This document shows, piece after piece, positions 3,955 to 60,333 of a DNA stretch of 64,000 bases. Position numbers and translations under genes: made by a program. The stretch is from positions 160,001 through 224,000 of the forward strand of contig CAVOHZ010000008.1 of NCBI GenBank assembly GCA_963695855.1, given 5' to 3'. The stretch is from an uncultured Nitrososphaerales archaeon (lineage in GTDB: Archaea; Thermoproteota; Nitrososphaeria; Nitrososphaerales; Nitrososphaeraceae). Each line of letters opens with the position of its first letter. Position 1 is the stretch's first letter. The notes under the pieces are model-generated. The model saw only the letters and a list, made by a program, of their open reading frames with translations, did not search any database and was not told where the DNA came from.

Positions 3955-4020
3955 TGGTTTCACTTTATAGAATGGAACCGAAATTTAAGTCAAATTTGTT
4001 TCACATCCCACTGGCCCCAT
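3955..4020 (+). repeat. Dispersed junction site family C (tRNA 3'-end-like cccactggcccc)
   Basis: tggtttcactttatagaa...aaatttgtttcacatcccactggcccca; similar to 12039-12100 and 12898-12950. Confidence 0.7.
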
Positions 4021-4127
4021 ATAGCGTAAGGGGACAGTTAAAGTATAAGAAGATTATACCAGACAGAACAACAACAAACTATCTTTTATTTTCAATTTAC
4101 ATTTAAATAGATATATTCGTATGGTAG

Positions 4128-4164
4128 TCGAGTCCCACTCCCGGCGCTCAACTCGCGGAGTCTA
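4128..4164 (+). repeat. tRNA-Ser-like 3'-end fragment, junction family S copy 1
   Basis: tcgagt-cccac-tcccggc-g (T-loop, T-stem, acceptor, G73) followed by ctcaactcgcggagtcta, shared with 7176-7216. Confidence 0.75.
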
Positions 4165-4412
4165 CTAAGATTATGTCATTTTCAAATATTTTAGTTGTAA
4201 GTATTATCAGATTCAATTTTTCTGCCATTCTTGGCATTTCAATATTCATTTAAAATAGTTTGCAACAGTCATATCTCTTCTTTTAATTAATTAATTAATC
4301 TATTACGCTAACGATATTCAATCAATAGAGGAGAGTTTGGTAAAGCAGTCAAGAAGGTATTAGCATTAGAATATTCGAATACAAATCTAACCACATATTT
4401 GTTTTTTATCTT

Positions 4413-4631
4413 TTATTTGATTTCAATAATTAATTCACATTTTACGTTCAACTTGGAATGATATTTTTCTATTGCTTCCTTGCTTGAAGCATCTAACATG
4501 TAATAACATAGGTCTGCATCTCGATTGAAGTAAGTGTTAATATTCCTAATCTCACCTCTTGTATGCGTTTTTACCAAACATTCTATCTGCGAGACTTTAT
4601 GGACATCAAGAAATACTGGCATATATCTCAC
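4413..4631 (-). CDS. DUF4242 / SCO4226-like small metal-binding protein
   Basis: MPVFLDVH...CYYMLDASSKEAIEKYHSKL pattern. Confidence 0.65.
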   Translation of the reverse strand: MRYMPVFLDVHKVSQIECLVKTHTRGEIRNINTYFNRDADLCYYMLDASSKEAIEKYHSKLNVKCELIIEIK

Positions 4632-4723
4632 TAACTATAACTATGCAACAACTCTAATCAAGGTTAATGCTAGGTGATACAGGCAAGTAAAAGACATCGG
4701 AATGCAAAGTCTAATTCCACTAT

Positions 4724-5644
4724 TTATCCATAATTAACCTCTTCCTTTGGCGATATTTCGTGTAAACCCAGGTGTACTGCTTCTGGGTTCGAGTCCCACT
4801 CCCGGCGCGCGCCACATTCTATTTGAAATAGTCTGCCATTTAGAAATCTTGATACGGTTCTATTAAATTCCTCTACTTTCTCTACATGAGGATAATGACC
4901 ACACTCATCAAATATTACAAGTCTGGAATTGGGAGTTTTAAATTTTTCTGCATATCTTAGAGGCATTAGTTTATCATTTCTTCCCCAAATTATCAATGTA
5001 GGTGTATTAATATTTAGTCTATCAGCGAGCTGAGGATGATTTTTAAGTGATATTAAAGTAGACATGAAAGCAAACTTTGAATTACTCAGATTCATCCTCT
5101 TAATAAAATCTTGGATTGAATCTTCTGTAATCATACGCGGATCATACACCATCTCATAGTATGCTGTTGCCACATTATAGAACGTGGGATAGAGTGCAGC
5201 AGAAATATATTGGTTCAAAGCTGGTGTTATATGATTCATCATTCCAGCTGGCGATATTAAAACCAGTTTGTTTATATCTTTGGGAAATCTAATAGTATAT
5301 TCTAACGCTAAAAGTCCCCCAAACGAGGAACCCATAAGATGTAAATTATCAATCTCCATAATTTGAAGGACTCTTTGAATAAATTTTATAAAAAAATCCA
5401 TATTGTATTCTGCATGAGGTTTATCACTGTACCCAAAACCAATTATATCTGGTACTAATAGTCGATAAAATTTAGATAAAAATGGTATTATTTCTGACCA
5501 GCGGTCTAATGATCCTCCCAAGCCATGGAGCAGAAGCAGTGTTGATTTTTTTGGATTGCTATTCTTTTTACCGGTGTCTAGGTATCTAATTGAATAATCA
5601 TCAACTTTCATTGTCGCAATATCGCGGTCAATCAAACTATACAA
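4724..5644 (-). CDS. Alpha/beta-fold hydrolase
   Basis: LLLLHGLGGS oxyanion motif, GSSFGG nucleophile elbow, WGRND acid, CGHYPH catalytic His; C-terminal tail reads through a tRNA fragment. Confidence 0.9.
   Translation of the reverse strand: MYSLIDRDIATMKVDDYSIRYLDTGKKNSNPKKSTLLLLHGLGGSLDRWSEIIPFLSKFYRLLVPDIIGFGYSDKPHAEYNMDFFIKFIQRVLQIMEIDNLHLMGSSFGGLLALEYTIRFPKDINKLVLISPAGMMNHITPALNQYISAALYPTFYNVATAYYEMVYDPRMITEDSIQDFIKRMNLSNSKFAFMSTLISLKNHPQLADRLNINTPTLIIWGRNDKLMPLRYAEKFKTPNSRLVIFDECGHYPHVEKVEEFNRTVSRFLNGRLFQIECGARREWDSNPEAVHLGLHEISPKEEVNYG
4785..4808 (+). repeat. tRNA-Ser-like 3'-end fragment, family S copy 2
   Basis: gggttcgagtcccactcccggcgc. Confidence 0.75.
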
Positions 5645-6585
5645 CTGATATCAGAACATCCTCCAATATTTTGTCCATTTGAATAAAATATAATTAAATT
5701 TGTAACATAATTACGAGAATTCAAATTTTTGGCCACTAGAAAAAGATATATACATAAAATAATATCTATCATATAATAGATCTTCACTTATAATATTTTG
5801 GCGACCTCTAGTATAAATGACTATAATTCAAAGATTTAGTGTTTCTTGCTCTATAAATCATAAATCTTCTTGATTGCTTCAAATAAAAACCAAATTCTCT
5901 GAAATAGTTGTAAAAATAATTTATCATTGTTTTGTATTTGAGTATACGTATTTTCATTTTTAATTTATAAAAATACTATTCTAAAAGAAGTAACAATCAC
6001 ATTTCACTTTTTCTATGATATTATCAGGTATGGATGTTTTTTTTAATACCTGTACTTGTTTCTATCCCAACTATCGCTGTTACACCCTGTTTAGTCCCTA
6101 TCTTTTCTGGACAGCTAAATTATCAATAATATTTTTAACTATAGTTTTTACCATTATCTTTGTAATGTAGCGAGAAAAGTGCCGAGGTTATCTCCAATAC
6201 GGGAAGAGGAATTATAGGATGAGTAGTAAGAAGAATTCTTACCGTTGTCGTCGTCTACTCCATAATTAGTTCTGTTCACAATAAATTTCATTAATTATAA
6301 ATCAACATGAGATAGAATATCTGTTGGACACAAATTTTAACCGATTGAGAAGAAGATGATGATGGCTAGGATGAAAATAGGGCTATATCATCTAGCTGTG
6401 TATCTATGAAGTACTAGAACAAAACTTTGTGTAACGGATACATATGTGTGAATGCTTAGTTTGGTAGCTAAATGAAGGATTTATTGTTATTCTTACTCTT
6501 GATTGATAAATTACATCTTATATTTATTTATTATATTTTTGACGAAATTATTATATATATTAGAGTTCCTTTATTTATATCAAAA

Positions 6586-7077
6586 ATGTCTGCAAGTGTA
6601 GGTAAACCTATTCCTCTTTTATCAGACATTGATAGAAAAATATTAAAGATTCTTCTTGTACCGAATGGAAATATACAATCCAACACGATAGCAAAAAATT
6701 TAGGAATTCCAATTACTACAGTTAGAAGGAGACGTAAGCGGTTAGAAAACGAATTTTTAAAAACATACCATGTCTTGGATATAGAGAAATTTGGATGGAG
6801 ACGTGTTGATTTCTTTATTTCAGTGAGAAATGGAAAGGTAAATACTGTCGCTAATAAGCTGATGGAAATAGATGAAGTAACATATGTAGGCAAAAGTATT
6901 GGAGAACATACAATTGATTTGAGAATAGAAACTATAGTTAAAGATAACATTGTACTTCTAGATCTGCTTGAAAAGATAAAAGGAATGGATGGAGTTGCTG
7001 ACGTGATATGGAGCGAGATTGTACATGTAATAGCTAGAAAAATATCCATTCCCTCTACAATTATTGACAAAATATAG
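6586..7077 (+). CDS. Lrp/AsnC family transcriptional regulator
   Basis: LSDIDRKILKIL...IAKNLGIPITTVRRRRKRLE HTH plus RAM domain; start revised from 6472 to the in-frame ATG at 6586. Confidence 0.88.
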   Translation: MSASVGKPIPLLSDIDRKILKILLVPNGNIQSNTIAKNLGIPITTVRRRRKRLENEFLKTYHVLDIEKFGWRRVDFFISVRNGKVNTVANKLMEIDEVTYVGKSIGEHTIDLRIETIVKDNIVLLDLLEKIKGMDGVADVIWSEIVHVIARKISIPSTIIDKI

Positions 7078-7175
7078 TAATAATAAAGATGGATTCCAGG
7101 TCACTAATTATCTTAAGATTTGGAAGTCTAATAATATTTTAATATTTGATAGTAGAACCCACATTTGATGAACAA

Positions 7176-7216
7176 GGGTTAGAATCCCACTCCCGGCGCT
7201 CAACTCGTGGAGTCTA
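7176..7216 (+). repeat. tRNA-Ser-like 3'-end fragment, family S copy 3
   Basis: gggttagaatcccactcccggcgctcaactcgtggagtcta. Confidence 0.75.
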
Positions 7217-7369
7217 TCAATTACAAATATGAAGACAATTCAAAATTTATGAAGACAATTCAAAATTTTCAGCGATTTCTTATCTTAACAAATGTATATT
7301 TTGTTGTAGTGTAGAATTTGATTTTATTAAAGGCTTTATACTATTTTGGGAAAGTTGATTTTTTTTAAT

Positions 7370-9031
7370 CTAATTTTTATTGATTTTTTCTTTATTTAAT
7401 AACTTATTAAATGATGATATAATTTTTTTAAAATCGTCTTTGGTAGCATTAGATTTAGCAAATTCTACTAGATCAGTAATTTTCAAAGATTCTCTAATAT
7501 CATCAATAGGATAATAATTATGTTTTTGTAGTAATCTTATTAATTCTTCACTAGTTATTTCTCTTTTAAGACCTGCATCATGGCTCAAAAATAATCTAAT
7601 TGCTTTGCCGGCAGTTCCAAAAGCTTCCTTGTATTCTCCTTTATCATAATACTGTTGAGCTTGTGATATTAGTTTTTTTGATTCAATAATATGCTCAAAG
7701 GATTTTAATTTTGGAATTGGAGATGAATCATTAATAGTAAATGTTTTTTTCTTTTTTAAGAATTTTTTGATTACAAAATAAATAGATACAATAGATATGA
7801 TAGCCACAGCCAATAGTATGAACAAAGTTAGATTAGATGAGTTAGAACTGTTATCTTCTAATGTAACGCGCTTTATCTCATCATTTTCAAAATTTGCTGT
7901 GATTTTTGCATTATCGTGTTTTTGATTCTCATATTGAAGTATTATATTAGTTTCATTTTCATTATCTTGAAAATTGATATCATTTTGAGAATATCCTTCT
8001 GTGACTAACTGATTATGAAATTGTTGAAATAGCGTATTTTGTTTTAATTTTTCTAAAAGTTTTTCTTGTTGATCTTGTGTTTGTTGTTTGAGCTCAGTTA
8101 TTGTTCCGTTTTTCATATTTCCTTGTAATGTAGCCCATTTCCCATCTGTATTTTTGTATTTCATATCAAAACTGCCAGTATCATTAGACAAAGGTTTCAA
8201 AATACTGTTTGTAATGTTATAACCATTTTCTAAGAGTTTTTGGTGTCTATTTAGAAAATTATTATTAGATAATAATTGCTTTTCAAACTCTTTTTTTATT
8301 TGTTCTTGTTGTTGTACCTGTTTTTGTATTTGTTGTTTTAATGCATTGCTGTCTTGAGATAATTGGTTGTTTTGAAGACGTTGTTGCTGATTTTGTGATG
8401 GATTTTGTTGATTTCCAAGTAGTTCATTTAGTCTTTGTTCCATCTGTTGTTCTTGTTGAGAAAATAAATCTTGTTGATTTCCAAGTAGTTCATTTAGTCT
8501 TTGTTCCATCTGTTGTTCTTGTTGAGAAAATAAATCTTGTTTTTGAGATTGCGTGTTTGGTTGCTGAGATTGCGTGTTTGGTCGAGAAGAGCTTTGTATT
8601 TTATTTTGTTGATTATTTTTTTGAGAAGCATCAGATACAAAGTGAATTATTATAGGACCTAGAGAAACAGTTCGATCTCCATTTTCATTATAATTAAAAT
8701 TTAGATTCATGACTAAATTAGAAGGAGCATCAGAAGTACCTAAATTCAAGTAAATTTTTTGGTTTTCTTCATTTATTACAAGAGATTTTGCTTCTGTATT
8801 AGAATTTGAGAATTGAACATTTCCCTGGCTGATTTGCTGTGTTATAGTGTATTGTAACATGCCAGAAATCTGTTTTCCATAAGTGCTGTTTATTTCAATT
8901 GGAATTATAGCCTGTGCGCCAATCTTAAAATAATATTCAGTTTGTTCAGTTGAGAACAAAATATCCTGTGCATAAACAGCTTGAAGGGAAGCTAGAAAAA
9001 TAAATAGGGATAATAAAACAAATACTTTCAT
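7370..9031 (-). CDS. Gln-rich membrane-anchored protein of the MoxR/vWA (Bat-like) operon
   Basis: Signal peptide, Q-rich linker with 66-bp duplication (8405-8541), TM helix, C-terminal helical DLVEFAK domain; 4-bp overlap with vWA gene. Confidence 0.75.
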   Translation of the reverse strand: MKVFVLLSLFIFLASLQAVYAQDILFSTEQTEYYFKIGAQAIIPIEINSTYGKQISGMLQYTITQQISQGNVQFSNSNTEAKSLVINEENQKIYLNLGTSDAPSNLVMNLNFNYNENGDRTVSLGPIIIHFVSDASQKNNQQNKIQSSSRPNTQSQQPNTQSQKQDLFSQQEQQMEQRLNELLGNQQDLFSQQEQQMEQRLNELLGNQQNPSQNQQQRLQNNQLSQDSNALKQQIQKQVQQQEQIKKEFEKQLLSNNNFLNRHQKLLENGYNITNSILKPLSNDTGSFDMKYKNTDGKWATLQGNMKNGTITELKQQTQDQQEKLLEKLKQNTLFQQFHNQLVTEGYSQNDINFQDNENETNIILQYENQKHDNAKITANFENDEIKRVTLEDNSSNSSNLTLFILLAVAIISIVSIYFVIKKFLKKKKTFTINDSSPIPKLKSFEHIIESKKLISQAQQYYDKGEYKEAFGTAGKAIRLFLSHDAGLKREITSEELIRLLQKHNYYPIDDIRESLKITDLVEFAKSNATKDDFKKIISSFNKLLNKEKINKN

Positions 9032-9978
9032 TGTATTATTCTACCTCTACCATATCTCAAATAGATCTGTAAAAAGAAAATACCAAGTGCAAATACAAAA
9101 AACCAATCTTTAATGTTGGTTTCTTCTTTTTCTCGTTTTATATCAGTACTGATATTTTGATAAATCTCATTTAATGTCTTAATATCAACAGACTTGAAAT
9201 ATTTGCCACCTGTCTGCTCTGCAATAGATCTGAGTGTATCTTCGTCTAGTTCTGCATATTGCGGTCTACCAAAAAAATCATAACCAAGAAGAGTTTTTCC
9301 TCCTGAACCAAGACCAATTGTGTAAACTTGAATATTGTTTGATTTTGCAAAAGATACGGCTTCTGATGGAGAGATTACTCCTGCATTACTTACTCCATCG
9401 CTGAGTAAAATCACAACTTTTTTCTTATTTTGAATAGAGGTTGCCATATCAATTCCCAGACTTAATCCATCACCAATAGCCGTTTCACCGTTTGTTTGAG
9501 CAATATTAGAGAGTTTTTCTATAACCTTGTCCTTATTTGGACTCAAATATGCTGCAGTAGTTGCACCTGTCCCAAATATTACAATTCCAGCATTATCTTT
9601 AGGAGGTAATGACTCCACAAGAATTTTTGCAGAATTTTTTGCAGCCTCAAGCCTGTCAGGTTTATAATCTGTAGCTTGCATACTGCCTGAAACATCAATC
9701 ACAAGCACTACATTTACTCCTTCTTTACTTTGTTCCAGCGGTATGTGTGGATTAGCAAATCCTATAATCATCAATCCAATTGTTACCAAAGATAGATAAA
9801 ATAGCCATAAATCTCTCCGAGATTTTCTTTTATTTCCTATCGCAGATTTAATAAATTCTAAATTACTGAATTTTATCGCTTCCTTTCTCTTTTTAGATAT
9901 TATTTTATAATATAGAAAATACAATCCAGGAATAACAAGAAGCGCAATTAAAACAATCTGAGAATCGAATCCGGCCAA
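9028..9978 (-). CDS. BatA-like vWA domain membrane protein
   Basis: MIDAS DVSGSM, PDRLEAAK, TAIGDGL, LLSDG; N- and C-terminal TM helices. Confidence 0.92.
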   Translation of the reverse strand: MAGFDSQIVLIALLVIPGLYFLYYKIISKKRKEAIKFSNLEFIKSAIGNKRKSRRDLWLFYLSLVTIGLMIIGFANPHIPLEQSKEGVNVVLVIDVSGSMQATDYKPDRLEAAKNSAKILVESLPPKDNAGIVIFGTGATTAAYLSPNKDKVIEKLSNIAQTNGETAIGDGLSLGIDMATSIQNKKKVVILLSDGVSNAGVISPSEAVSFAKSNNIQVYTIGLGSGGKTLLGYDFFGRPQYAELDEDTLRSIAEQTGGKYFKSVDIKTLNEIYQNISTDIKREKEETNIKDWFFVFALGIFFLQIYLRYGRGRIIQ

Positions 9979-9983
9979 AATTA

Positions 9984-10859
9984 TTATCTCCTAATTCTTT
10001 TTTTAAAGAATTTTCTTAAGGGGGTCTCGTAATTTTCATCAGATAAAATCTTTATAAAATCTACTTTCAATTTTATTAGATTTAAAATCAATTGTGACTC
10101 GTTATTTGATACAATCTCTGTATATTTTGTTTGAAATAGGGGATCAGATGTATCAACAAGAATCTGTTCTCCTGTTTCTTCATCTTCAAGCTGGATTAAT
10201 CCTATTTTTGGAATTTCTTGTTCACGTACATCAGAGATTTTTAATATAATAACATCATGCTTTTTCCTCAATATTTTTAATGGTTTTAGATAATCATTGG
10301 AATCAAAAAAATCCGAAAGTATAAACAAAATACAGCGTTTTTTTAGAATTTGTGAGACTTGAACTAGTGCTGTTTTCAAGTTAGTAGTCTTTGATTTTGG
10401 TTGGAAAGAAATGATTGAGCTTAGAATTTGTAGAACATGTTTTTTCCCCTTTCTTGCAGGAATAAATCTTTCAATTTTATCAGTAAATAAAAAAATACCA
10501 ATATTATCATTATTTCTCAGTGCTGCAAACATCAAGCTTGCTACAATTTCTAAAGCTTTTCTTTTTTTAGGAATTTTATTTCCAAAACTTCCAGAACCGG
10601 AGATATCTAAAAGAAAATATACTTGCAGATCTCGTTCTTCAACATATTCTTTAACGTAAGGTTGATTGTATCTAGCAGTAACATTCCAATCTATAGAACG
10701 TATATCGTCTCCTGACCTATATTCTCGAATTTCTGAAAACTCAATGCCTTGTCCTTTAAACGTGGAGTGATAATTTCCAGTTAGTAATTCATTCACTAAA
10801 TATTTTGTAGAAATTTCTAGTTTTTTGATTTGTTTTAGAATTTCTTGTGTTTGGTTCAT
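9984..10859 (-). CDS. DUF58 domain protein
   Basis: GQGIEFSEIREYRSGDDIRSIDWNVTAR...VKEYVEER. Confidence 0.93.
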   Translation of the reverse strand: MNQTQEILKQIKKLEISTKYLVNELLTGNYHSTFKGQGIEFSEIREYRSGDDIRSIDWNVTARYNQPYVKEYVEERDLQVYFLLDISGSGSFGNKIPKKRKALEIVASLMFAALRNNDNIGIFLFTDKIERFIPARKGKKHVLQILSSIISFQPKSKTTNLKTALVQVSQILKKRCILFILSDFFDSNDYLKPLKILRKKHDVIILKISDVREQEIPKIGLIQLEDEETGEQILVDTSDPLFQTKYTEIVSNNESQLILNLIKLKVDFIKILSDENYETPLRKFFKKRIRR

Positions 10860-10889
10860 TGGATCACTTTTAGATGATTATAACAACAC

Positions 10890-11891: not shown

Positions 11892-12038
11892 ACTTCTTCA
11901 ACTTCTGGATTCAACATTTCAGTCATAATACTAAGAAAACTAGTATGTCAATTTTCATATAAATATTATTTAACAACGTTCTCTAATGAATTGGATTATA
12001 TAAAAATCAAGGTGTTTGTTATATTTTGTAAAAAAATA

Positions 12039-13155
12039 ACTGGTCCCACTTTATAGAAGGGTTCAAATCCCACTGGCCCCGTTGTGATAATAGTTCTAAA
12101 ATTGGATTCACTAGAAAGAAAATAGGTGAATCAAAAAATAAAATGAAAATAGAACAGAGTTATGAAGAATCTAATGTATATTCATTATTTGAATATGATC
12201 AATTACTTTGCTTATGAATTATTAAATAATATCTTTATCTGATAAGTTTAGTGAAGGATAAGAATAACTTAGATAATAGAACTGCTTTAAATAAATATCA
12301 TCTTCCAGTACCAAAGAATTCCATTCAAAGAATTGATAGAAACACATCACCTGCTCATATAGGAAAGTTAAGAAATGCAATAGACTTTCTAGTTCCAGAA
12401 AATACCCCTGTATTAGCAGCAAGCGATGGAACAGTAACACTTGTTAATGATGACTCAATAATAGGTGGTCCAAGCGCTGCTTATTGGAACTTTTCTAATT
12501 TTATTTTAATTATGCATAAGAATAAAGAATGGTCAAGATATGATCATCTCAGATTTAATAGTTCTACTGTAAAAGAAGGACAAAAGGTTAAACAAGGACA
12601 GAAAATTGCGGAAGTAGGTATGACTGGTTATACATATATTCCGCATCTACATTTTCAAATCTCGATATTTGATGGTCCTAATATTTGGACAGATTTTGAC
12701 ACATTAATAGTTGAAGATTTTATAGATTCATAAATATTTAAGAAAAAAATACTTATATTTTTGAAAATGATTGAATATGAAAACGTGTTAGAGCTATTCT
12801 TTGATAAGGGTTATCGTTTAGATCTTTAATAAAAAATAAGTTACATAAATAAAGATTTTAGAATTAACGCATAAGATCCAAGATAGGTACAAAATTCTAG
12901 AATGAGACCAGAATCTGTGTTAAATTTGTTTTACAAACCACTGGCTCCATTGAACTCTGGGTTCTAATCCTATTTCTAGGAGAATTCATGAAACAGCAAT
13001 GTTACAAACTAGGAATTAATCTTTACTTTTTTTAATTATTTATTTATGAATCCATTAAGACAAAGAATTTTGAAATCCAATAATTATATTCAAAATAATT
13101 TTGTAACAACAAAGGATTCTGTAGGATTTGAACCCTTCTATAAAGTGAGACCAGT
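12039..13155. mobile_element. 1.1-kb segment bounded by 35-bp inverted repeats (family C) and carrying an M23 peptidase
   Basis: 12039-12073 actggtcccactttatagaagggttcaaatcccac vs reverse complement of 13121-13155: 2 mismatches in 35. Confidence 0.55.
12251..12733 (+). CDS. M23 family metallopeptidase
   Basis: H...NAIDF, TPVLAASDG, RYDHL, VGMTGYTYIPHLHF. Confidence 0.9.
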   Translation: MKDKNNLDNRTALNKYHLPVPKNSIQRIDRNTSPAHIGKLRNAIDFLVPENTPVLAASDGTVTLVNDDSIIGGPSAAYWNFSNFILIMHKNKEWSRYDHLRFNSSTVKEGQKVKQGQKIAEVGMTGYTYIPHLHFQISIFDGPNIWTDFDTLIVEDFIDS

Positions 13156-13544
13156 ACTTTTCATATTAACCTGATAGCTGCATCAACGAATGATCAGTCA
13201 TGGTCAATGGATAGAAACTCAACTAATAACGATATAAGAATACATTTCAAAAGATTGCATTTCAAAAAATTATTTCATTGAATTGAAAGAAGGAGAGAAC
13301 TTATCTTAGATTAACATATACGAAAATCGTCTATGATTTGTATTGATATGCAAATTCTGTTTTGTTTTTGAAGTAGTTATACTGCTTATTATTTATTGGT
13401 ATCAATATATTATTTGTAAAAATAATTTTATATTTTTTATCTGTTTCAATATTCTTAACCCAAGAAATTTTTATATCACCAAAATGATTTTGTCGCTAAA
13501 TTAAGGTACATTTTAAAAAAGAGTATTAAAATTGGTGTTTTCTA

Positions 13545-14141: not shown

Positions 14142-14155
14142 ATCCTTTTAACTAA

Positions 14156-16854: not shown

Positions 16855-17047
16855 TAAGATTCACCTTGGAGAAATACAATAAAAATAATTATACTAAAAA
16901 TATTATTAAATATATCTCAAAAACAATAAGCAAAAACAATAATCTTTAATGCTCTGATGATTGAAATTAGGTGTTTTAGTGATGTACTATAACAAAAAAT
17001 ATTCATCGTTATTTTGTATTTGCTTGTTATATTTAAGACATGTATAT

Positions 17048-17114
17048 GAACCCGAATACATAACGGGCCCGTCGGGAGTAATACCGATAGCGGTGCAAAA
17101 ATAAGAGTCTAATG
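17048..17114 (+). repeat. Junction element family A copy (gaacccg arm, tRNA-like core, accgatagcggt hairpin arm)
   Basis: gggcccgtcgggagtaataccgatagcggtgcaaaaataagagtctaatg, also at 26956, 33510 and 41701(-). Confidence 0.85.
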
Positions 17115-17272
17115 CTATAGTAAAAAGAGAGAATATTTAAGATTTCCTTTCTAACTTATGAAATATATTATTTACCTATAAAGAAAACTTTGTTTTATCG
17201 TAACGTTAACAAACTGAAAAAAAGGAGTTAAGACCTCACCTCAATTATGATACGAATTTAAAAAATTTAATT

Positions 17273-20586: not shown

Positions 20587-20625
20587 GTAGTAGAACACTA
20601 CTACGTGCAAGACTCTACTCCCAGA
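20587..20625 (-). repeat. Junction element family B copy (degenerate)
   Basis: Revcomp gggagtagagtcttgcacgtagtagtgttctactac matches 34321, 54338 and 60274. Confidence 0.7.
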
Positions 20626-20909
20626 TAAGCCTACTACTTTTATAAAGTAATGAAATTTTTTATAACTATACTCTCATTCTATATGTAGACATGTTATATC
20701 ATTGGAACTATAAACTTGAAGATGATGAATTAACTTACAGTATAAATACAAATGACAAACTGTTTAACGCACTTGTAGATTTATCGATGCAGGAATGGGA
20801 AGATGCTTTGGGCGGCGTGATATCATTTAAGAAGGTGGATAATCAACCGTTCAATTTATAAATTATTAAATTAAATTATAATTATTTCATTAATCAAACC
20901 CATTTACTC

Positions 20910-26195: not shown

Positions 26196-26955
26196 TAACT
26201 AATATTAGGTCATATATCTAAAGAGATAGTTTATTATGATATTTAGATTGAACTTTTTAGTTCAATTATATATCTATATAGAACAATCATACTTTTTCGA
26301 TTAGAGCTTGTATATTTTCAGGAAATTCAAATGAAATTCTATTATTTTGTGCTACTCCCTATCAAAAAGAAGTTTTTCCAATGAAGCATTTAATGTACTG
26401 ACTTTAGTTTTCTCTCGATATATCTAATGTATCACCGTTATGAATAGACACAAGGATTCTCTTTAATACACCTTGTAGTATTGGAACTTCTACTACCTTC
26501 TAATCTCCATTATCTACTTCAATCATCATTAACAGTAGCAGTATTCATATATGCATTTGGATTGCTATCGATAAATCTTAATGGTAAGCTAAGAGACATG
26601 CGTCACCACTAAAGCCATCATCAGATAGTCCATAATCATTATCATTATAATTACCATTTTGAGTATCTACTCATTTGCTGTTTGTGTATTCATTATACTG
26701 ACATTTTTAATATATCGTTGTAGCGTTTTCTGTTCTGTTTTTTCATTCTTATCAGTTAACTCTATTCCGTCCCTCCTTCCTAATCTAAGAATAAAAACCT
26801 GTTCTATGTTATTAGTTTATTGTATTTCTTACGATTTATACATTAGCAATATGAAAATTTGTTATTAGTATCGTTTCAATAGATAAATCATAATGGTTGA
26901 TTCGAGTAATTCATAAAAAGAGTCAGAGAGATGATAAATCTCTAAAAGTAAAGTA

Positions 26956-27025
26956 GGCGAACCCGAGAAAAGTACTGGCCCGTCGGGAGTAATACCTATA
27001 GCGGTGCAAAAATAAGAGTCTAATG
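26956..27025 (+). repeat. Junction element family A copy
   Basis: ggcgaacccgagaaaagtactggcccgtcgggagtaatacctatagcggtgcaaaaataagagtctaatg. Confidence 0.85.
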
Positions 27026-27145
27026 TTAAGGTATCATTAATAATAGTCAAGATTTATTTTTTAATTATTATATTACATTTTTTTAAAATTACTTGAGAGT
27101 TTCTTGAAAGATAAAAAAAGAAAGAAAGTTAATGTCTCAATAACA

Positions 27146-32208: not shown

Positions 32209-32936
32209 GAGCGTTGTAGTAGCACATACTTATTTAAAGATATTATAAATTAAGTTTATTAGTAATTTATGTATCAGGCTTCGAGAATTCGGATACTAAC
32301 CTTCAACACGTCATTTTGATATCTTTCAGAAGTTCGCATGCATTTTGATATCTTTCAGAAGTTCGCATGCATTTCAAATATTCATGAAATTCAATCAGCA
32401 AAGTAGCATTTTTTCTGTTAGGTAAGAGCATTTACTTTTTTCAGAATATTCGCTAACTTCGTTGGCATCTTACTGAGGTCTCCTGTTCATTTCTATCTAC
32501 TATCTATAGTATATGAGCCCAATTGGTTGACTGGCTCGGAGGTATGTGAATTGTTTTTGACACAATATTTTTGGCCCATATTATAAGATAATAAAACTTG
32601 GAATTAGATTCAATCACTTTCTTTCAATACTTAAAATAAAGAAAGGAAATTAATTAATAATTGTACCTAACTAAAAACTTTAACATTTTTTAAATAAATA
32701 ATAAGTGGTCACAAGCTATGTTTTTTATAATTTTTAAAAGAGTATACTGTTCTTTGAATCTTTATTCATAGTGAATTACATATTTTTATTTTTAGAGTTA
32801 ATTAATAAAATGTTCTAAAAGTAATATTATTAAGTTAATATATCAAATAAAACCAGAATGTATTAGAAAAAATTGACATTTGAATAAATGAAAGATTTTA
32901 ATTCAATTCAAAAGAAACTACAAATATTTATAAATG

Positions 32937-34290: not shown

Positions 34291-34395
34291 GGGTTCGCCT
34301 GCATTTTCAGCAAGCTGGTCGGGAGTAGAATCTTCCATGTAGTAGGGTTCTACTACGTTATATTTAGCTTTTATCATTAGAAATTTATTTTAAAA
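34291..34395 (+). repeat. Junction element family B copy
   Basis: gcaagctggtcgggagtagaatcttccatgtagtagggttctactac...tttagcttttat. Confidence 0.85.
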
Positions 34396-34702
34396 TAGTT
34401 CTATTTTTTTATTTAAAAGATAAAAATAGAATCGGTTAATACAACAGATAATAATCAATTAGTCCCCATCCTCTTCTTGGAATGTATATCTTTATGTTTT
34501 TGTCATCGGTTCTTGGATAAACATTTTTGCACTTAGATTTCTGAAATAATAATAATAATCAAAACTAATCAAGTAAATGCGATCAATATAAAAAAATTGT
34601 TTATGAAAAAGGATAATAACTTTAGTAGCATAAAAAGTACCTGAAATATATACAGAGTAATCCTAAATTAAGTATTTAAATTAAATTTCACTATTTTTTT
34701 AG

Positions 34703-35470: not shown

Positions 35471-35493
35471 TGGAGGGGATGGGATTTGAACCC
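35471..35493 (-). repeat. tRNA-Ala-like 3'-end fragment (att-like)
   Basis: Revcomp GGG-TTCAAAT-CCCAT-CCCCTCC-A: U70 and A73 fit tRNA-Ala; no 5' half present. Confidence 0.7.
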
Positions 35494-41700: not shown

Positions 41701-41764
41701 TATCTCTTTATTACTATAACATTAGACTCTTATTTTTGCACAGCTATCGGTATTACTCCCGACG
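41701..41764 (-). repeat. Junction element family A copy (inverted)
   Basis: Revcomp cgtcgggagtaataccgatagctgtgcaaaaataagagtctaatgttatagtaa. Confidence 0.85.
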
Positions 41765-45386: not shown

Positions 45387-45626
45387 TTAGGATGTCTGGG
45401 TGATTGAGAATTTTAATAGTGGCATAGATGACAATAATAACACACATGAATTATCTTTTTCCAAAAAACTGCCAAATGCTATTACAACCTTTAAATTATT
45501 ATTTTGATGATGTTTAGAGGAACTATTATTTCTCATGTACGTAAGAAATTCATTTACTATCTCTATATTCCTGGAATTAGGGATAAACTGAATCCTTCCT
45601 ACTGTTGTAGATAGTTTCATTGGCAT
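45387..45626 (-). pseudogene. N-terminal remnant of a thaumarchaeal-type tyrosine integrase
   Basis: MPMKLSTTV..I..IPN..N....EF..YM..N.SS..HQNNNLKVVIAF recalled as the SAM-like N-terminus of these integrases; catalytic domain absent. Confidence 0.65.
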
Positions 45627-45994
45627 TTATGAGATCTTTCTCCTCTTATATACAAGATATAATATCAATTCCAAGTACATGAACCCGCTTATATAATGCG
45701 GCCAGTAGTTTCCGTTGTGATATTGGTACTAAAAACGGATTTAAAATATTATAGTTAATTACGAGCTATAAACTTTTCTATTTCACCAGATTTTATTTAA
45801 TTTTTGATATGATCTTGATTAAAATCTATAACTCAATTTTTGAAGATCTGTTATATCAATACCATTTTATCAGTTCTTGTATTAAATTTAGAATCGATTC
45901 GACTTATTCTTGACCTTTCTTAGTCAATTTATATTTTACTGGCATGTAAAAATGAATAATAAAAACCTTAAATGTATGCAAATGTATTATAACC

Positions 45995-49884: not shown

Positions 49885-50500
49885 TCAGATTTCATTATAC
49901 TCACATATACAGATTTATGCATAAGTGGGGATTCAAGCATAAGGTACCAAGAAAAGTACATGTGAGCACAGCATCAAAAGAAGATAAAAAAGATTTTAAA
50001 AAAGAGCAAGAAAGATAATGGACAATCTAAAAAATGAATGCACAGTAGTATCTACAGACGAATCATTCTTCTTCTATGATACTTGTAAGAAGAGTCTGGA
50101 TAAAGAAAGATGAAAGACCAGTTGTAAGGATTACTGGATCTCATCGAGTCAGTTCTATTTGGTGCCACAAGTTTAGAAGGAAAACAGTTATTTAGACAGT
50201 GTAACTGATTTGATGAAAACACCTTTCTTGATTATCTAAAACAGATACATAAAAAATTTCCAAAATGTTATTTGTTCCTAGATAAAGCAAAACAGCATCA
50301 CAGATCAAAAAAGGTACTGAAATATTTTGATGAATACAAAAAAGATCTAATTCCAGTATATCTTCCAACAGCATCTCCAGAGTTTATGGTACTTGAGGAA
50401 TGCTGGAATATAGCCAAAACCGATCTACTTGTTCTACAGTATCATTCATCCTTTACAGATTTCAAAAATAAAATATCCTCGTATTTTAGAACAAAAAAGA
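49885..50500 (+). pseudogene. Degraded IS630 element
   Basis: High similarity to 58168-59233 (HKWGFK.KVPRKVHV, LDKAKQH, PTASPEFM), with frameshifts and stops. Confidence 0.85.
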
Positions 50501-51705: not shown

Positions 51706-52145
51706 GTGGTCCTTGTACTGAGTGATATTTTATTTAGTCTTTTTAATCTGAACCTAATGCGATTACATCCAAATCTTTTTGTTATACGTAAATCCAGGAT
51801 TTGTCGTTCTATCTCATTTGTTACTTTTCCCTGGGTGTATATTATGTGGTTTTCTACTTTTATTCTGCAGATCATGTATTCCATACTTTAGGTACCTGTT
51901 CTTCCACTTGTAGTATGTCTTTCTGGATATCTTATACCATTTACAGATGTCAGTTATTGTATATCTCCTGTCCATTCTTTCTTATGAATTAAATTAAATC
52001 TTGTTTGTAATTCTATTTCGTATACACTTCCTAGCAGAACTAGAAAGTGTTACCTATGTCAGTAAACGAAATTGTAACCTATGTCAGTAAACGAAATTGT
52101 AACCTATGTCAGTAAACGAAATTGTAACCTATGTCAGTAAGTACA
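51706..52145 (-). mobile_element. IS481-like remnant: TGT-initiated end with 25-bp subterminal repeats and frameshifted HTH N-terminus
   Basis: ICKWYKISRKTYYKWKNRY...SRKPH...RFGCNRI; end reads TGTACTTACTGACATAGGTTAC on minus strand; repeat at 52052-52140. Confidence 0.7.
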
Positions 52146-52153
52146 ACACTTAA

Positions 52154-53464: not shown

Positions 53465-53676
53465 TAATCACATCAAAAAAAAGTAGTATAAAAATGTTCT
53501 TATTAAAATCGTTGTGTATAATAAACATTTGTATTTATTTTAAAGTTATATATGTATTAACCTTTAAATACTTACTACAATTTATCTTTAAGGATAAGTA
53601 ACTATATAATGGTTAACTAATCCTACTGAAATATTGAAATTTTTTTTAATAATATTTTTGTTACTATGAACTTGAA

Positions 53677-54286: not shown

Positions 54287-54406
54287 GGGTTCACCTTTTA
54301 TCAATAGGATTCAACTACATATTCCGCAAGATGGTCGGGAGTAGAATCCTCCATGTAGTGGGGTTCTACTACCTTGTATTTAGCTTTTATTGTTAGAAAT
54401 TTATTT
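54287..54406 (+). repeat. Junction element family B copy
   Basis: gcaagatggtcgggagtagaatcctccatgtagtggggttctactaccttgtatttagcttttatt. Confidence 0.85.
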
Positions 54407-54456
54407 CTGTTGATTTTACAGCTAAATTATAAATAAACCGGAGAATCAAACAAATA

Positions 54457-57713: not shown

Positions 57714-57864
57714 TGGGTAGAGTTGTAGAGGAAACAAATTCATGGCATAACAGATTCAGGAAGTTATTTACAAGATATGAAAAGAAAGATGAGAACTATC
57801 TCGGTCTTGTATAATTGGCTAATAGTATAATTGTTTATAGGAGGATAATTTTGGGATAGGCTCT
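57714..57864 (+). pseudogene. 3' fragment of the IS427-like IS5 element with intact terminal IR
   Basis: aattcatggcataacagattcagg...ttttgggataggctc. Confidence 0.85.
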
Positions 57865-58167
57865 AAATGTAAAAATATAATTAAATACCGATTTGATATT
57901 TAAATTTCTCAAGTTGAGCATTTTTTCTCAGTTATTTTATCTGTCATTATAATATTTTTTATAATCTTTTTAATTTCCTTTTCTGAATTTTTTTAATAAA
58001 CTTAACATTATCTCTTTTCACAGCTTTTTCCCAATTCTTTTGTCAGATTCATTCCAGAGTTTTTCTACTATTTGTTATTGTAAATGAATAATGTTTTAGA
58101 AGACCAAAACGGTTTCTTTAAAAAAAATATTCGCTATTTTGGTATCATAATATCAAACTATACCATC

Positions 58168-59233
58168 TAGCATATGTTAGCTGACACCTCCCAACAGATA
58201 GTGTCTCATATCAAGACAGAATCTTTTTGTCTTAAAATACGAGGATATTTTATTTTTGAAATCTGTAAAGGATGAATAGTATTGTAGTACAAGCAGATCG
58301 TTTTTGGCTATATGCCATATCTCTTCCAGTACCATAAATTCCGGAGATGCTGTTGGAAGATATATTGGAATTAGATTCTGTTTGTGTTCATCAAAATATC
58401 GTAGTACCTTATATGATCTGTAGTGCTGTTTTGCTTTATCCAGAAACAGATAACATTTTGGAAACTTTCTGTGTATCTGTTTTAGATAATCTAAAAATGT
58501 GTTTTCATCAAACCAGTCATATTGCCTGAACATCTGTTTTCCTTCCAGACTTGTGGTACCAAATAGAACTGACTCCTGATGTGACCCCGTAATCCTTACA
58601 ACTGGTCTTTCATCCTTGTTTATCCATACTTTCCTGACAAGTGAATCATAGAAGAAAAATGATTCATCTGTAGATACTACTGTAAATCCTTCTTGCTGAT
58701 GCTGCTGCTGGAGAGTATCCAGTACCTTTCTTGCTCTTTTTTAAAATCCTCTTTCTCTTCTTTTGATGCTGTGTTCACATGCACTTTTCTTGGTACCTTC
58801 TGTTTGAATCCCCACTTGTGCATTAGTCTGTAAATATGTGTATAATGGTATCTGATTCCACCACTCTTCCTTACTATTAGATCTTCTACCTGTTTCGTAG
58901 TCCATCCTTGTTTACTGGATGCTAATTCGTTTTTTATCTCATATACAGTCTCTTCTGGTATATCTGGTGGTCTGCCACTCTTTGTCCTGTTTTTTAATCC
59001 TTCTATACCTTCTTTCCTGTACCTCTTTAACCAGTCAGAAGCCCATGTTCTGCTTCTATGAAGATCTCTTGCTACCTGTGCAGGAATCTGTTTATCATAT
59101 ACTACGTTCAACACAATTAGCATTCTTTCCTTTACATTAGTATCATGTTCAGATCTGTATAGTTTTTCAAATCTTGCTTTAGATATTGTACTAGTCAATA
59201 AGATATCATGTTTATAGTATCAGCTAATAGCTA
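58168..59233 (-). mobile_element. IS630 family element, orfA 58677-59198 and orfB to 58177 via a probable -1 frameshift
   Basis: HTH and DES / LDKAKQH / LEE motifs; slippery TTTTAAAAAAG near 58735-58746; ends TAGC...TTAGCTGA. Confidence 0.9.
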
Positions 59234-59357
59234 TTCTGATCTAAAAGATAATACAAGATAGTAAAATATTGTCAGCATACTTATGATAACTGGTATATAA
59301 CTTTGTTATTATAGATATTAAGATAAAGATTATATGAGAATTTAACCTTCAACACTT

Positions 59358-59951
59358 GTGCAGAAATATGTTAAAATAATATATTGTATGTTAGTAATTT
59401 CAATTACAGTTTCGTTAATAACTTTTAGCCCATCTACACAGATGTTATCAATAATAAATCCTGCTTTGGCAGAAGATGAAAACTTTGATAATATGAAAAA
59501 TGTATCACAACAGACACAAGAATCATCCACAAAGAATCATAATAAAATCAATGTGGAATATGCAAAAAAAGACAAAACTGAGTCAGACTTGGATGATAAT
59601 AATTGTAAAACGAATAAGATCCTTAAGGGCGCATCAAATAAAAAGGATTTAAAAATACTTTCAGAATGTGAAAAGGCCGTAGGAAAGGTAAAACATATTC
59701 AAGAAATGCCTGATGGGGATTATAAATTCTTGCTAAAGTTAGAAAAAGAATACAAATCTCTTTTAAATAAAGATAATAAGAAAAAGACAGGAGGAAATCT
59801 TGTTATAGAGATTGTTCCTAAAGATCAAGATTCTAAATATGTTGAATTACCTGATAAAGGAGACGATGTAGAAGTATGGGGAGCTTGGGTCATAGATAAA
59901 CCAAAGGGATGGAATGAAATTCATCCAGCATGGAAAGTTTTGGTTAAATAG
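59358..59951 (+). CDS. Secreted protein with putative OB-fold C-terminal domain
   Basis: Signal peptide; DGD..F...LVIEIVP...VEVWGAWVID...WNEIHPAW. Confidence 0.7.
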   Translation: MQKYVKIIYCMLVISITVSLITFSPSTQMLSIINPALAEDENFDNMKNVSQQTQESSTKNHNKINVEYAKKDKTESDLDDNNCKTNKILKGASNKKDLKILSECEKAVGKVKHIQEMPDGDYKFLLKLEKEYKSLLNKDNKKKTGGNLVIEIVPKDQDSKYVELPDKGDDVEVWGAWVIDKPKGWNEIHPAWKVLVK

Positions 59952-60244
59952 ACAGAATCAATATATTCTATAGTACATTCGCTTGACTCACTTCTCCAAA
60001 TTTCTGTTATTACGTACATGATCCAATAGCATTATTTTGTGATTAAATTATCTTTTACTATTAGTAATAATTGCAATCATTTTTTCAGTATCTTCTTATA
60101 TGTGATGAAGCCAATTGAGTTTTTTTGATTGTTCAAATGCTATTACTGCTAATTTTTTATCATCCAGTAACCCTTCTGAGCTAATAAAGAAGCTTGATCC
60201 CAATAGATGTCTTCATGCAATAAAACGAAAATTTTTAAGGCTAT

Positions 60245-60333
60245 GGTGAACCTGAGAAACGTACTGACCCGTCGGGAGTAGAATCTTCCATGTAGCGGGG
60301 TTCTGCTACCTTGTATTTAGTTTTTTTTAGAAA
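60245..60333 (+). repeat. Junction element family B copy with gaacc arm
   Basis: ggtgaacctgagaaacgtactgacccgtcgggagtagaatcttccatgtagcggggttctgctaccttgtatttag. Confidence 0.85.

Follow-up and report, generated by a model that had tools for sequence, protein, structure and literature searches.

Dozens of small blocks of accessory genes are stacked in the genome of a soil ammonia-oxidising archaeon, and short repeated sites mark where the blocks joined. Very probably, these sites are att junctions left by the serial integration of elements whose tyrosine integrases target tRNA genes, a tandem accretion within an IS-rich plasticity zone of about 300 kb; the stretch of 64,000 nucleotides analysed here, called the window, is the middle of that zone. 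The original prediction had already read the sites as att-like junctions of tRNA-targeting tyrosine integrases, and the genome bears it out on both counts: the cores of the sites are tRNA ends, and intact integrases stand beside the cognate tRNAs.

Sites in the window

All 17 positions of the original prediction are multi-copy: 120-nt segments taken there, compared with the genome by blastn-short, have 3 to 53 matches, the segment itself included. The four types of tRNA fragment that had been distinguished each map to a host tRNA:

Type A (17048, 26956, 33510, 41701): 3' end and trailer of the tRNA at C8:2734-2821
Variant A', grouped with type A (20587, 34291, 54287, 60245)
Type B (3955, 12039, 12898, 13121, remnant 45681): tRNA at C8:91508-91603
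Type C (4128, 4785, 7176): tRNA-Ser-like gene at C2:~4436-4540
Type D (35471): tRNA-Val(tac) at C10:1703132-1703206

A fifth type, at 32509-32548, had been overlooked. With P for proximal and D for distal arms, the sites are the following:

3955..4045 (+), type B, variant B2: distal arm, 14-nt core at 4006-4019 identical to the 3' end of tRNA C8:91508-91603, then an inverted core copy
4124..4170 (+), type C: degenerate T-arm, core 4134-4147 (tRNA-Ser-like 3' end), downstream arm of ~19 nt without an integrase behind it
4762..4810 (+), type C: 24/24 identity with the tRNA-Ser-like 3' end at 4785-4808; overlaps the 3' end of a hydrolase ORF, and a paralogue at C6 begins directly after the site
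7150..7220 (+), type C: core 7186-7199, flanking arms inverted; ~144 nt from the left end of the MoxR block
12033..12112 (+), type B, variant B1: distal arm, 22-nt tRNA match ending at 12080, downstream arm
12898..12975 (+), degenerate type B, with a further T-arm-like fragment behind it
13109..13161 (-), inverted partial type B1, forming with 12033-12085 an inverted repeat (83%, 53 nt) that encloses the M23 peptidase block
17042..17126 (-), type A: P1 17042-17063, core 17064-17079 (tRNA 3' end), D1 17080-17126
20587..20631 (+), type A': partial core and D2
26954..27033 (-), type A: short arm P2 with no integrase behind it, core 26975-26990, D1
32280..32548 (-), fifth type: tRNA-Arg(tcg) 3'-end remnant (32509-32548) with the motif GGGCTCATATAC at 32509-32520, adjoined by an integrase N-terminal stub at 32280-32468 (-), the first ~53 codons
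33510..33605 (-), type A remnant: D1, with ~6 nt of the type A core left
34291..34396 (-), type A': partial core and D2
35471..35493 (-), type D fragment: 23 nt resembling the tRNA-Val(tac) 3' end, the last 14 identical
41701..41764 (+), type A, inverted relative to the others: D1 and 10 nt of core; co-duplicated with the cyclase/receiver gene on its left
45387..45710 (-), remnant of a type B core, with the proximal arm (GGGTTCATGTAC, 45675-45686) and an integrase N-terminal stub
54287..54412 (-), type A': D2
60245..60343 (-), type A': D2, core, short arm P2

The 3'-terminal 14-mers of the 32 distinct host tRNA ends, searched in the window with at most 1 mismatch, agree at 13-14 of 14 nucleotides with 8 distinct loci (4006, 4133/4134, 4794/4795, 7185/7186, 12068, 17077, 26988 and 35484), and reversed controls give 0. 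The remaining nine listed sites consist of conserved arms and partial cores only. A looser motif, GGGTTCATATAC with at most 2 mismatches, is not enriched in the window, with 6 matches versus 7 in the reversed control. Over the whole genome, the 3' 20-mers of 34 tRNAs (at most 2 mismatches) have 107 extra copies, some of which are similar tRNA genes matching one another, and 0 in reversed controls.

The window holds no intact tRNA, as had been stated: ARAGORN reports 0 tRNA genes, and an Rfam scan (E<=1) returns only 4 CRISPR repeats and one weak unrelated match, none of them to a tRNA model. The sites were also said to fall almost only between cargo blocks, which agrees with the 16 of 17 that are intergenic; the exception is 4785, where the hydrolase ORF shares its last ~30 codons with the site.

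Could the sites be functional RNA genes, for example small regulatory RNAs or split-tRNA halves? They stand out as GC-rich islands against a genome of ~30% GC, and the host tRNA set looks incomplete (37 tRNAs by ARAGORN, 33 by Rfam). However, a complete cognate tRNA gene is present for every type, no 5' half came to light, a good many of the copies are degenerate, and tRNA models are without a match in the window: we find this explanation barely credible.

Arms that switch at the core

In each site, a tRNA-derived core is joined to arms, and the arms switch exactly at the core. Type B has 2 families of upstream arms and 5 of downstream arms, and 9 of the 10 possible combinations are present, which confirms the earlier remark that the arms recur in different combinations.

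Sites that are short, intergenic, present in high copy number and tRNA-like inside also call to mind tRNA-derived miniature transposable elements, MITE- or SINE-like, spread by transposition. A constant pair of termini with target-site duplication does not characterize the sites: since upstream and downstream arms combine freely and switch at the core, there is no fixed pair of ends, and the copies span variable parts of the unit. Their cores, moreover, match present host tRNA 3' ends and adjoin integrase starts. Spread by transposition is, in our opinion, very improbable.

Arrays and integrases in the genome

The genome contains 153 site clusters, 76 of them on contig C8 and 71 within C8 20-320 kb, where their median spacing is 2,445 nt (2.4 kb); the density far exceeds one remnant per element, as predicted. 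The sites avoid genes: only 3 of 73 have their midpoint inside an ORF of at least 90 aa, though such ORFs span 56% of the region. They also form strand-coherent runs on C8: a run of type A on the plus strand, from 2 to 44 kb, headed by its tRNA and integrase; a run of type B on the plus strand, from 91 to 172 kb, headed by its tRNA; and a run of type A on the minus strand, from 177 to 296 kb.

Four cognate tRNAs have an open integrase frame directly on their 3' side, at C8:2892-4235 (type A), C2:2812-4461 (type C), C10:1701555-1703063 (type D) and C10:1147485-1148792 (Arg), and a second open type A frame, of 469 aa, adjoins a type A site at C8:~291.6 kb. The genome has two open-frame integrases for type A and three for type C. 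They are tyrosine integrases with a C-terminal zinc ribbon, placed in the general Phage_integrase family only: the C and D integrases score 36.4 and 34.6 bits against PF00589, above the Pfam cut-off, and the A integrase scores 20.2 bits, below the cut-off of 27.1. Their alignment contains ARPHE, K, RHS, W and Y blocks, which we take to be the catalytic motifs.

Within the window itself there is no intact integrase: it holds 2 of the 44 integrase loci found by tblastn, both of them N-terminal stubs. One is the N-terminus that had been noticed beside 45681, recovered here as ORF 45387-45626 (-) with a tblastn match at 45453-45626 (-). A search of the genome for an intact type B integrase, the check proposed for this stub, found none: beside type B sites, the four examined loci of one integrase family are all broken, and the other associated family has left partial remnants only. 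Intact cognate integrases of types A, C and D, encoded elsewhere in the genome, could act in trans.

In the SSV-type, or "suicidal", archaeal integrases, attP lies inside the integrase ORF, so that the gene is left in an N and a C part upon integration (PMC7253208). The integrases here do not follow this pattern: full-length open frames adjoin the tRNAs in the integrated state, and the stubs start after the core, about 50-70 nt past it, and read away from it.

At the 8 window loci the core agrees with the 3' part of a host tRNA at 13-14 of 14 nucleotides, with 0 matches in reversed controls; a tyrosine recombinase gene stands at the tRNA-proximal junction elsewhere in the genome (A, C, D, Arg); and integrase-less blocks flanked by att sites lie, co-oriented, in the same array as the element with the cognate integrase. 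Integration into a tRNA 3' end would duplicate a short core taken from the 3' part of the acceptor and T-arm, and would place the distal arm of the element on one side of the core and the proximal arm of the next element on the other. Further rounds, targeting either the tRNA or any core copy left by a previous one, would build long and mostly co-oriented arrays. Most units probably lost their integrase through decay, as the broken and partial type B loci suggest, and inverted pairs of sites, together with IS copies, may have further inverted and shuffled the blocks. We infer that integrases made these junctions, and catalysis at the core has indirect support from the arms that switch there and from two breakpoints against relatives, described below; the intact integrases encoded elsewhere may still act on type A and type C sites.

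Blocks, IS elements and relatives

Two of the labels given to the cargo were not confirmed by annotation: the ORF 3006-3503, called DUF4242, is without a Pfam match, and the ORF labelled GT, 25299-26195, matches C5-epimerase_C instead. Against the reading of the sites as junctions, the blocks often end 40-150 nt away from a site; for MoxR, the type C core stops at 7199 and the left end of the block is at 7343. In favour of captured blocks, several relatives carry the MoxR operon and the M23 gene in conserved contexts free of sites. In the relative G010, the MoxR block adjoins an integrase-like gene, which implies that at least some blocks are the remains of ordinary integrase-bearing elements.

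If the sites are junctions, synteny with close relatives should break at them, and it does so in two comparisons: homology with G003 ends at the 3' end of a B core (window 12080), and homology with G010 sets in no more than 2 nt from the 5' edge of an A core (window 17077). Against this, the comparison of the rhodanese/cyclase block with G010 gave no breakpoint at the level of a core. Relative G012 has an array of its own, at C16:288-319 kb, in which all 15 of 15 site clusters are co-oriented and the cargo is mostly unrelated. Each of the genus's 4 genomes has 10-22 type A sites; of 37 genomes from 17 other genera in the family, 29 lack such sites and the richest has 5.

A more passive origin would be that a few old integrations supplied repeats, and that homologous recombination and IS activity, not integrases, made the mosaic. 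The material for it is at hand: transposase ORFs or pieces of them number at least 9 in the window; an IS630-like element recurs with 100% identity at 4 other loci, and with 97-100% identity at 6; a soil contig joins precisely across 18400-19606, giving the IS-free form (side 68); and an inverted repeat of 576 nt, 97% identical, stands on either side of C8:297.8-314.4 kb. However, homologous recombination would not be efficient over cores as short as 14-24 nt, and yet it is precisely at the cores that homology between copies breaks off. None of the 17 sites coincides with an IS end, and the co-oriented runs headed by a tRNA and an integrase also speak against this origin, which we judge unlikely.

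Possible movement of cassettes in trans

Most type A, B and C junctions have proximal arms of ~20 nt without an integrase behind them, and the mutual homology of the short-arm copies mostly ends within 29-38 nt of the core start; this is not what one would expect if full elements had simply decayed. One may conjecture a true cassette platform, functionally analogous to chromosomal integrons or to cis-mobilizable elements, in which integrase-less units of 1-5 genes, each made up of a distal arm of ~100-150 bp, a core and a proximal arm of ~20 nt, are captured, excised and inverted in trans by a few tRNA-specific integrases, this being the main way in which the arrays grow.

Several observations point in this direction. 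Arm P2 has ~14 or more copies without an integrase, and the matching type C arm has 8. Many blocks are small: of 72 blocks on C8, 14 have no ORF of at least 90 aa, 18 have one and 9 have two. The cyclase/receiver gene and its D1 arm are duplicated as a unit, at window 40517-41764, C8:266.2 kb and C3:68 kb. Five integrase stubs (162-189 nt) break off at nearly one and the same codon, which would fit the spread of a single truncated unit; a unit of 2.25 kb inside the array, at C8:289.3-291.6 kb, holds an open integrase frame only; and the open-frame integrases of types A and C would be there to do the work.

Against it, no two different cores were seen to carry an identical cassette, assembled contigs showed no circular junction, and two joints seen in metagenome contigs, 12069->12947 (side 27) and 4020->12981 (side 23), are below the reliability mark of 30. 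The ORFs do not share an orientation, hairpins are absent from the sites, the MoxR block has its integrase-like neighbour in G010, and the type B integrases are broken or partial. Integrase-less cassettes may plausibly move in trans, and it is only tentatively that we propose, for the genus, a tRNA-anchored accretion platform in which a few zinc-ribbon integrases move such cassettes, with several tRNA-specific systems interleaved in one zone of ~300 kb. If true, this would be an archaeal counterpart of bacterial super-integrons, with tRNA ends in place of attC hairpins, and it would help explain the large and variable accessory genome of the genus.

Comparison with known systems

In chromosomal integrons, small gene blocks are separated by recombination sites, and a tyrosine recombinase lies beside a primary site at the head of the array. 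Our arrays share the site-separated small blocks and the recombinase at the head. The label "integron-like" of the original prediction does not stand in the tests made here: folds of 8 sites as single-stranded DNA have z from -2.42 to +1.53, none below -2.5, and so show no attC-like hairpins; the ORFs have no polarity within blocks; and the integrases matched the general Phage_integrase family only, integrons having an IntI-type integrase with an extra domain of its own beside attI. Contrary to integron cassettes, which are single, co-oriented and mostly promoterless ORFs, the blocks have 0 to 33 ORFs in mixed orientations. In our arrays the primary site is a tRNA gene, and one region combines several recombinases with several types of core. 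With at least one block being the cargo of an integrase-bearing element in a relative, a strict integron was rejected.

The ICESt1/ICESt3 family offers another likeness: Pavlovic et al. are said to have reported, in 2004, integrase-less blocks flanked by att sites in tandem with an integrase-encoding element. Site-specific recombination can reportedly join or release these blocks, and mobilisation is said to have been shown by experiment. The tandem arrangement of att-flanked, integrase-less blocks is the same, but those arrays have two or three units with experimental mobilisation, whereas ours have dozens and are known from sequence.

Nearer in taxonomy, elements of Thaumarchaeota and archaeal tyrosine recombinases integrate into tRNA genes, including intron-bearing ones, through short att sites; the same site can be used again, giving arrays of elements, and such elements are involved in inversions (PMC6563490, PMC8371274). 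Our sites resemble these in their tRNA-gene targets, short att and re-use (Krupovic et al. 2019; Badel et al. 2021). In the sections of both articles that treat tandem cases, each case has two elements, and arrays of dozens of remnants are not described; the suspected host genus, Nitrosocosmicus, has 0 occurrences in the accessible text of the 2019 survey (PMC6563490).

The closest precedent, as far as the excerpted text of McMurdie et al. 2011 (PMC3146451) allows the comparison, is the tandem ssrA islands of Dehalococcoides. There, islands are stacked downstream of one small-RNA gene, all within ~100 kb, in a region of high plasticity; each is bounded by a direct repeat of ~20 bp of the ssrA 3' end, about half are without an integration module, and the authors discuss possible cis-mobilizable elements built by accretion. 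Stacking at a small-RNA gene, repeats of its 3' end and many units without an integrase are common to both systems. In Dehalococcoides, the same excerpts indicate, a serine recombinase acts on one target, the tmRNA, with about a dozen repeats per genome; in our case the host is an archaeon, zinc-ribbon tyrosine integrases serve at least 5 interleaved tRNA targets, and one genome carries 153 site clusters at a median spacing of 2.4 kb.

Origin of the sites

The window, positions 160001-224000 of contig C8, holds no intact tRNA gene, as had been predicted: ARAGORN finds none, and Rfam at E ≤ 1 reports four CRISPR repeats, one weak unrelated match and nothing else. All 17 positions that the original prediction listed as tRNA-fragment junctions are short GC-rich islands repeated in the source genome (3.55 Mb in 11 contigs, about 31% GC, archaeal amoA gene present), with 3 to 53 blastn-short matches each, self included. 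The four types of fragment that it distinguished all find a source among the host tRNAs. In the following list, the core is the tRNA-derived part of a site, and C2, C8 and C10 are contigs of the source genome.

Att-like sites of the window, sorted by matching host tRNA 3' end
Type A: 17048, 26956, 33510, 41701; core corresponds to the final ~16 nt and the trailer of the tRNA at C8:2734-2821
Type A' (variant): 20587, 34291, 54287, 60245; core corresponds to this part of the same tRNA
Type B: 3955, 12039, 12898, 13121 and a remnant at 45681; 3' end of the tRNA at C8:91508-91603, which has an intron
Type C: 4128, 4785, 7176; tRNA-Ser-like gene at C2:~4436-4540
Type D: 35471; tRNA-Val(tac) at C10:1703132-1703206
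Fifth site, overlooked in the original prediction: 32509-32548 (-); tRNA-Arg(tcg) 3' end, then an integrase stub at 32280-32468

The type C site at 4785 is identical to its source at 24 of 24 nucleotides. As a control for chance, the 3' 14-mers of 32 distinct tRNA ends, with at most one mismatch, match 8 loci of the window, against 0 for the reversed sequences. Over the genome, 107 extra copies of the 3' 20-mers of 34 tRNAs are found, including some matches between similar tRNA genes, against 0 for the reversed controls. The observation underlying the original prediction is confirmed.

ARAGORN labels the type A and type B tRNAs 'Stop(tta)' and '???', respectively; from their sequences, we read them as probable Lys(UUU) and Pro(GGG) genes. 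The name of the tRNA-Ser-like gene, equally provisional, comes from its long variable arm and from a 3' end like that of the tRNA-Ser genes called by ARAGORN. All three genes have introns, and some of their positions are non-canonical. Since only 33 tRNAs of the genome pass the Rfam cut-off, its tRNA set is under-called by standard tools.

Integrases and arms

Searches with PF00589 and tblastn reveal open tyrosine-recombinase frames that directly adjoin the cognate tRNA on its 3' side for types A, C, D and Arg.

Open integrase frames at target tRNAs
Type A: C8:2892-4235
Type C: C2:2812-4461
Type D: C10:1701555-1703063
Arg: C10:1147485-1148792

Further integrase frames adjoin type C fragments at C10:1771462 and C10:1793477, and another open frame of type A, 469 amino acids long, adjoins the type A site at about 291.6 kb of C8. 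This frame, whose product is 80% identical to the integrase at the type A tRNA, is the sole ORF of a 2.25-kb unit that two type A sites enclose (C8:289338-291589): the unit is a minimal integrase-plus-att element within the array. The aligned integrases have ARPHE, K, RHS, W and Y blocks, which we take to be the catalytic motifs. Past the catalytic tyrosine, the four listed integrases share a CxxC...CxxC zinc-ribbon-like C-terminal tail; the Pfam zinc-ribbon matches of the tRNA-associated integrases are weak and below cut-off. These integrases are not of the split SSV type, because the integrase remains whole in the integrated state. At the integrase loci, the tRNA 3' end is followed by about 10 nt, a GGGTTCATATAC-like motif, about 50 nt and the integrase start; on its own, the motif is not enriched in the window (6 occurrences versus 7 in the reversed control).

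Of the 44 integrase loci found by tblastn, 2 lie in the window, as N-terminal stubs: 32280-32468 and 45453-45626, the latter being the integrase N-terminus that was predicted to follow directly upon a site. Together with C5:7216-7377, C10:1364785-1364952 and C3:370438-370602, they make up five remnants that retain the first 162 to 189 nt of the gene, and whose similarity is lost within about 15-20 nt of one common point. This common cut reflects either a preferred break point or the spread of one truncated unit. Beside the type B sites no intact integrase was found: one integrase family is frameshifted or truncated at 4 of the 4 loci examined, and the other is present as partial remnants only.

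Anchoring the copies of all sites at the core allows the flanking sequences, or arms, to be compared. In type B, the arms upstream of the core fall into two families and those downstream into five; 9 of the 10 possible pairings occur, with similarity switching exactly at the core. Type A has three distal arms, D1, D2 and D3, and four proximal ones, P1 to P4. Arm P1 is found at the tRNA and at 291.6 kb of C8, in both places followed by an integrase, and at window site 17048, where the expected position is taken by ORF 15802-16854, which we reject as an integrase (BLASTP E of 0.96 against the type A integrase, no Pfam match). Arm P2, about 21 nt long, has at least 14 copies, none with an integrase behind it, and their mutual homology mostly ends within 29-38 nt of the core start. 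Type C has a comparable short arm without integrase.

Such integrase-less arms with mostly sharp ends, and five stubs cut at nearly one codon, fit a stronger reading that we consider unlikely, namely that integrase-less units spread after the loss of their integrase, mobilised in trans; the type B sites, with no intact integrase beside any of them, speak against it. The likeness to an integron that had been proposed fails on two counts: at 8 sites, single-strand folding into attC-like hairpins is no better than for shuffled sequences (z from -2.4 to +1.5), and ORF orientations are mixed inside blocks.

Arrays in the genome and the genus

Clustering of the site matches yields 153 site clusters in the source genome, 76 of them on contig C8. 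Between 20 and 320 kb of C8 there are 71 clusters, spaced by a median of 2,445 nt (interquartile range 1,376-4,535). Sites do fall between gene blocks, as predicted: 3 of 73 site midpoints lie within ORFs of at least 90 amino acids, versus a coverage of the region by such ORFs of 56%. Among 72 blocks, 14 have no ORF, 18 have one, 9 have two, 8 have three and 8 have four; small, short units also fit mobilisation in trans. Along C8, the sites form strand-coherent runs.

Strand-coherent runs of sites on C8
2-44 kb: type A/A', tRNA sense, with the tRNA and its integrase at the head
91-172 kb: type B, tRNA sense, with its tRNA at the head
177-296 kb: type A/A', opposite sense; covers most of the window
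297-307 kb: type A, tRNA sense again

The orientation of type A sites flips near 45 kb and near 297 kb, the pattern expected from a single large inversion; we conjecture that one inversion, from about 45 kb to about 297 kb, would co-orient all type A sites with their tRNA. Two inverted type A sites, at C8:297823 (+) and C8:314416 (-), have 576-nt flanks that are 97% identical and enclose a 16.6-kb segment. In relative G012, 15 of the 15 clusters at C16:288-319 kb are co-oriented, and their cargo is largely unrelated. Four sampled genomes of the genus have 22, 10, 19 and 21 type A sites; outside the genus, 37 genomes from 17 genera of the family have at most 5, and 29 of them have none (no claim depends on G059, one of the 37). 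Sites of B1, a variant of type B, number 23 in the source genome versus 3-7 in the other three genomes of the genus.

The cargo of the window consists of ordinary accessory genes: an alpha/beta hydrolase, an AsnC-type regulator, a MoxR operon, an M23 peptidase, an NHL-repeat protein, a C5-epimerase-like protein, a histidine kinase, a cyclase with receiver domain, a rhodanese, an HD-domain protein, an MFS transporter and a GNAT acetyltransferase. The histidine kinase (38405-40147) has paralogues at C8:141762-143504 (93%) and C8:131360-132997 (88%), within the same plasticity zone, and the MFS transporter (52150-53508) has one at C8:45782-47143 (90%), some 370 nt from another type A site. ORF 3-2423 (-), cut at the window edge, encodes at least 807 amino acids with two laminin-G/ConA-like domains and NHL repeats; it and a second NHL-repeat ORF, 13545-14141 (-), have internal repeats of 78 nt and about 141 nt.

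At least nine transposase ORFs or fragments (IS630-like, IS4/IS5-like and IS6-like) lie in the window, whose insertion sequences have 12 to 48 genome copies each (14115-15282, 18380-19608, 27903-28936, 30759-31372, 37387-38115, 41924-42864, 46824-47791, 49883-50497, 58156-59300 and 61402-62134). The IS630-like element was recently active, since it has copies of 100% identity at 4 loci other than its own; copies of 97-100% identity are present at 6. A CRISPR array of four repeats (38147-38403 (-); Rfam CRISPR-DR7, 47 bits each) lies between the IS6-like transposase ORF 37554-38060 and the histidine kinase gene; its repeat has up to 6 further genome copies, and there are no cas genes among the window ORFs scanned. 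Two tandem repeats complete the picture: about 8 copies of a 26-nt unit just upstream of the C5-epimerase-like ORF (25049-25291), and 4 copies of a 25-nt unit adjoining the MFS transporter gene (52043-52140), beside which a 384-nt stretch (51707-52090) has up to 19 genome copies.

Comparison with relatives and metagenomes

If the sites are junctions of integrated units, breakpoints of synteny should coincide with them, which holds in two cases and fails in three. The MoxR/DUF58/VWA operon (7317-12010) is found at 88-95% identity in G015, G012, G003, G010 and G007. The source genome and G003 share the operon and its B1 site, and diverge exactly past the core, at 12080; in G012, G015 and G007, another sequence, similar among the three and without a site, forms the right flank. 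The second case is the block with ORF 15802-16854, 95% identical in G010, where homology starts at most 2 nt from the 5' boundary of the type A core (17077), and unrelated sequence replaces arm D1.

The left end of the MoxR block goes against this pattern, being about 144 nt away from the C core, and its left flanks in G012 and G010 are alike and site-free. Nor does the rhodanese/cyclase block break at a core in G010: homology begins at about 42985, away from any site, and an apparent 'A site' beside the block is a chance-level 19-nt match. The M23 peptidase gene has one conserved site-free neighbourhood in 7 of the 12 relatives examined, whose homology to the window never extends outside 12172-12857; in G010 the difference does not amount to a clean deletion from core to core, since about 230 nt of other sequence are present there.

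In G010, the MoxR operon lies about 5 kb from the same tRNA, inverted with respect to the source genome, near an integrase-like gene 91% identical to C10:1674194-1674952. A block thus accompanied argues against mobilisation in trans, as does the fact that no moving cassette was caught. Within the source genome, the cyclase/receiver gene and arm D1 are duplicated jointly at C8:266.2 kb and C3:68 kb (about 80-82% identity). The hydrolase paralogue C6:81378-82256 (97%) is not a duplicated cassette, since it lacks the type C site.

Metagenome runs were compared as assembled Logan contigs, the best run matching 0.43 of the sampled words. One soil contig joins 18400 to 19606, with the IS precisely absent. 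The joints at cores are 12069 to 12947 (side 27), 4020 to 12981 (side 23) and 15282 to 17074 (side 24), which we do not count as evidence because all sides are under the reliability mark of 30. Contigs often end at sites, for example 7174 and 17058-17077; short-read assembly alone could cause this, as repeats break such assemblies regardless.

Discussion

The simplest account of these data is that elements integrated site-specifically, one after another, at tRNA 3' ends and at copies of the core already present. An element would integrate into one or the other, and repetition of this step would produce tandem accretion; each integration would leave arm-core-arm junctions whose two arms derive from neighbouring units. 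Tandem accretion explains the tRNA-derived cores, the integrases heading arrays, the co-orientation of sites, their intergenic position, the free combination of arms and the two exact breakpoints with relatives. It explains less well the small size of the units, the short arms that lack an integrase and mostly end sharply, and the near-identical cuts of the five stubs. The interpretation given in the original prediction, integrase-driven and integron-like gene accretion, is partly supported.

If integrase-less units still move, they would offer a slow-growing soil archaeon a simple way to gather and reshuffle genes for sensor kinases, cyclases, transporters, hydrolases and other accessory functions, and gene flow could be mapped in soil metagenomes with the short sites as ready-made markers. 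Should the sites be dead remnants instead, dozens of integration events would still have left a dated record in them.

As a process, tandem accretion is already known from tRNA or tmRNA genes. For archaea, the accessible text of two studies (PMC6563490, PMC8371274) reports re-used integration sites and, in thaumarchaea, short att sites, and describes no arrays of dozens of remnants; in that of the first, a 2019 survey, the suspected host genus, Nitrosocosmicus, is not named. The literature searched, supplements and most subscription journals aside, describes no accretion at this scale, meaning more than 150 att remnants per genome, one per ~2.4 kb over 300 kb, with at least 5 tRNA targets intermixed, and, within the same limits, no such array for archaea or ammonia oxidisers. 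The closest described case that we found is that of the tandem ssrA islands of Dehalococcoides: according to the accessible text, tmRNA 3'-end direct repeats lie no more than 100 kb from the gene, an integration module is missing from about half of the islands, and the authors raise the possibility that they are cis-mobilizable elements arising from accretion (PMC3146451). Beside these islands, the array is a new, unusually dense, multi-target archaeal case of tandem accretion at tRNA genes, and not an integron.
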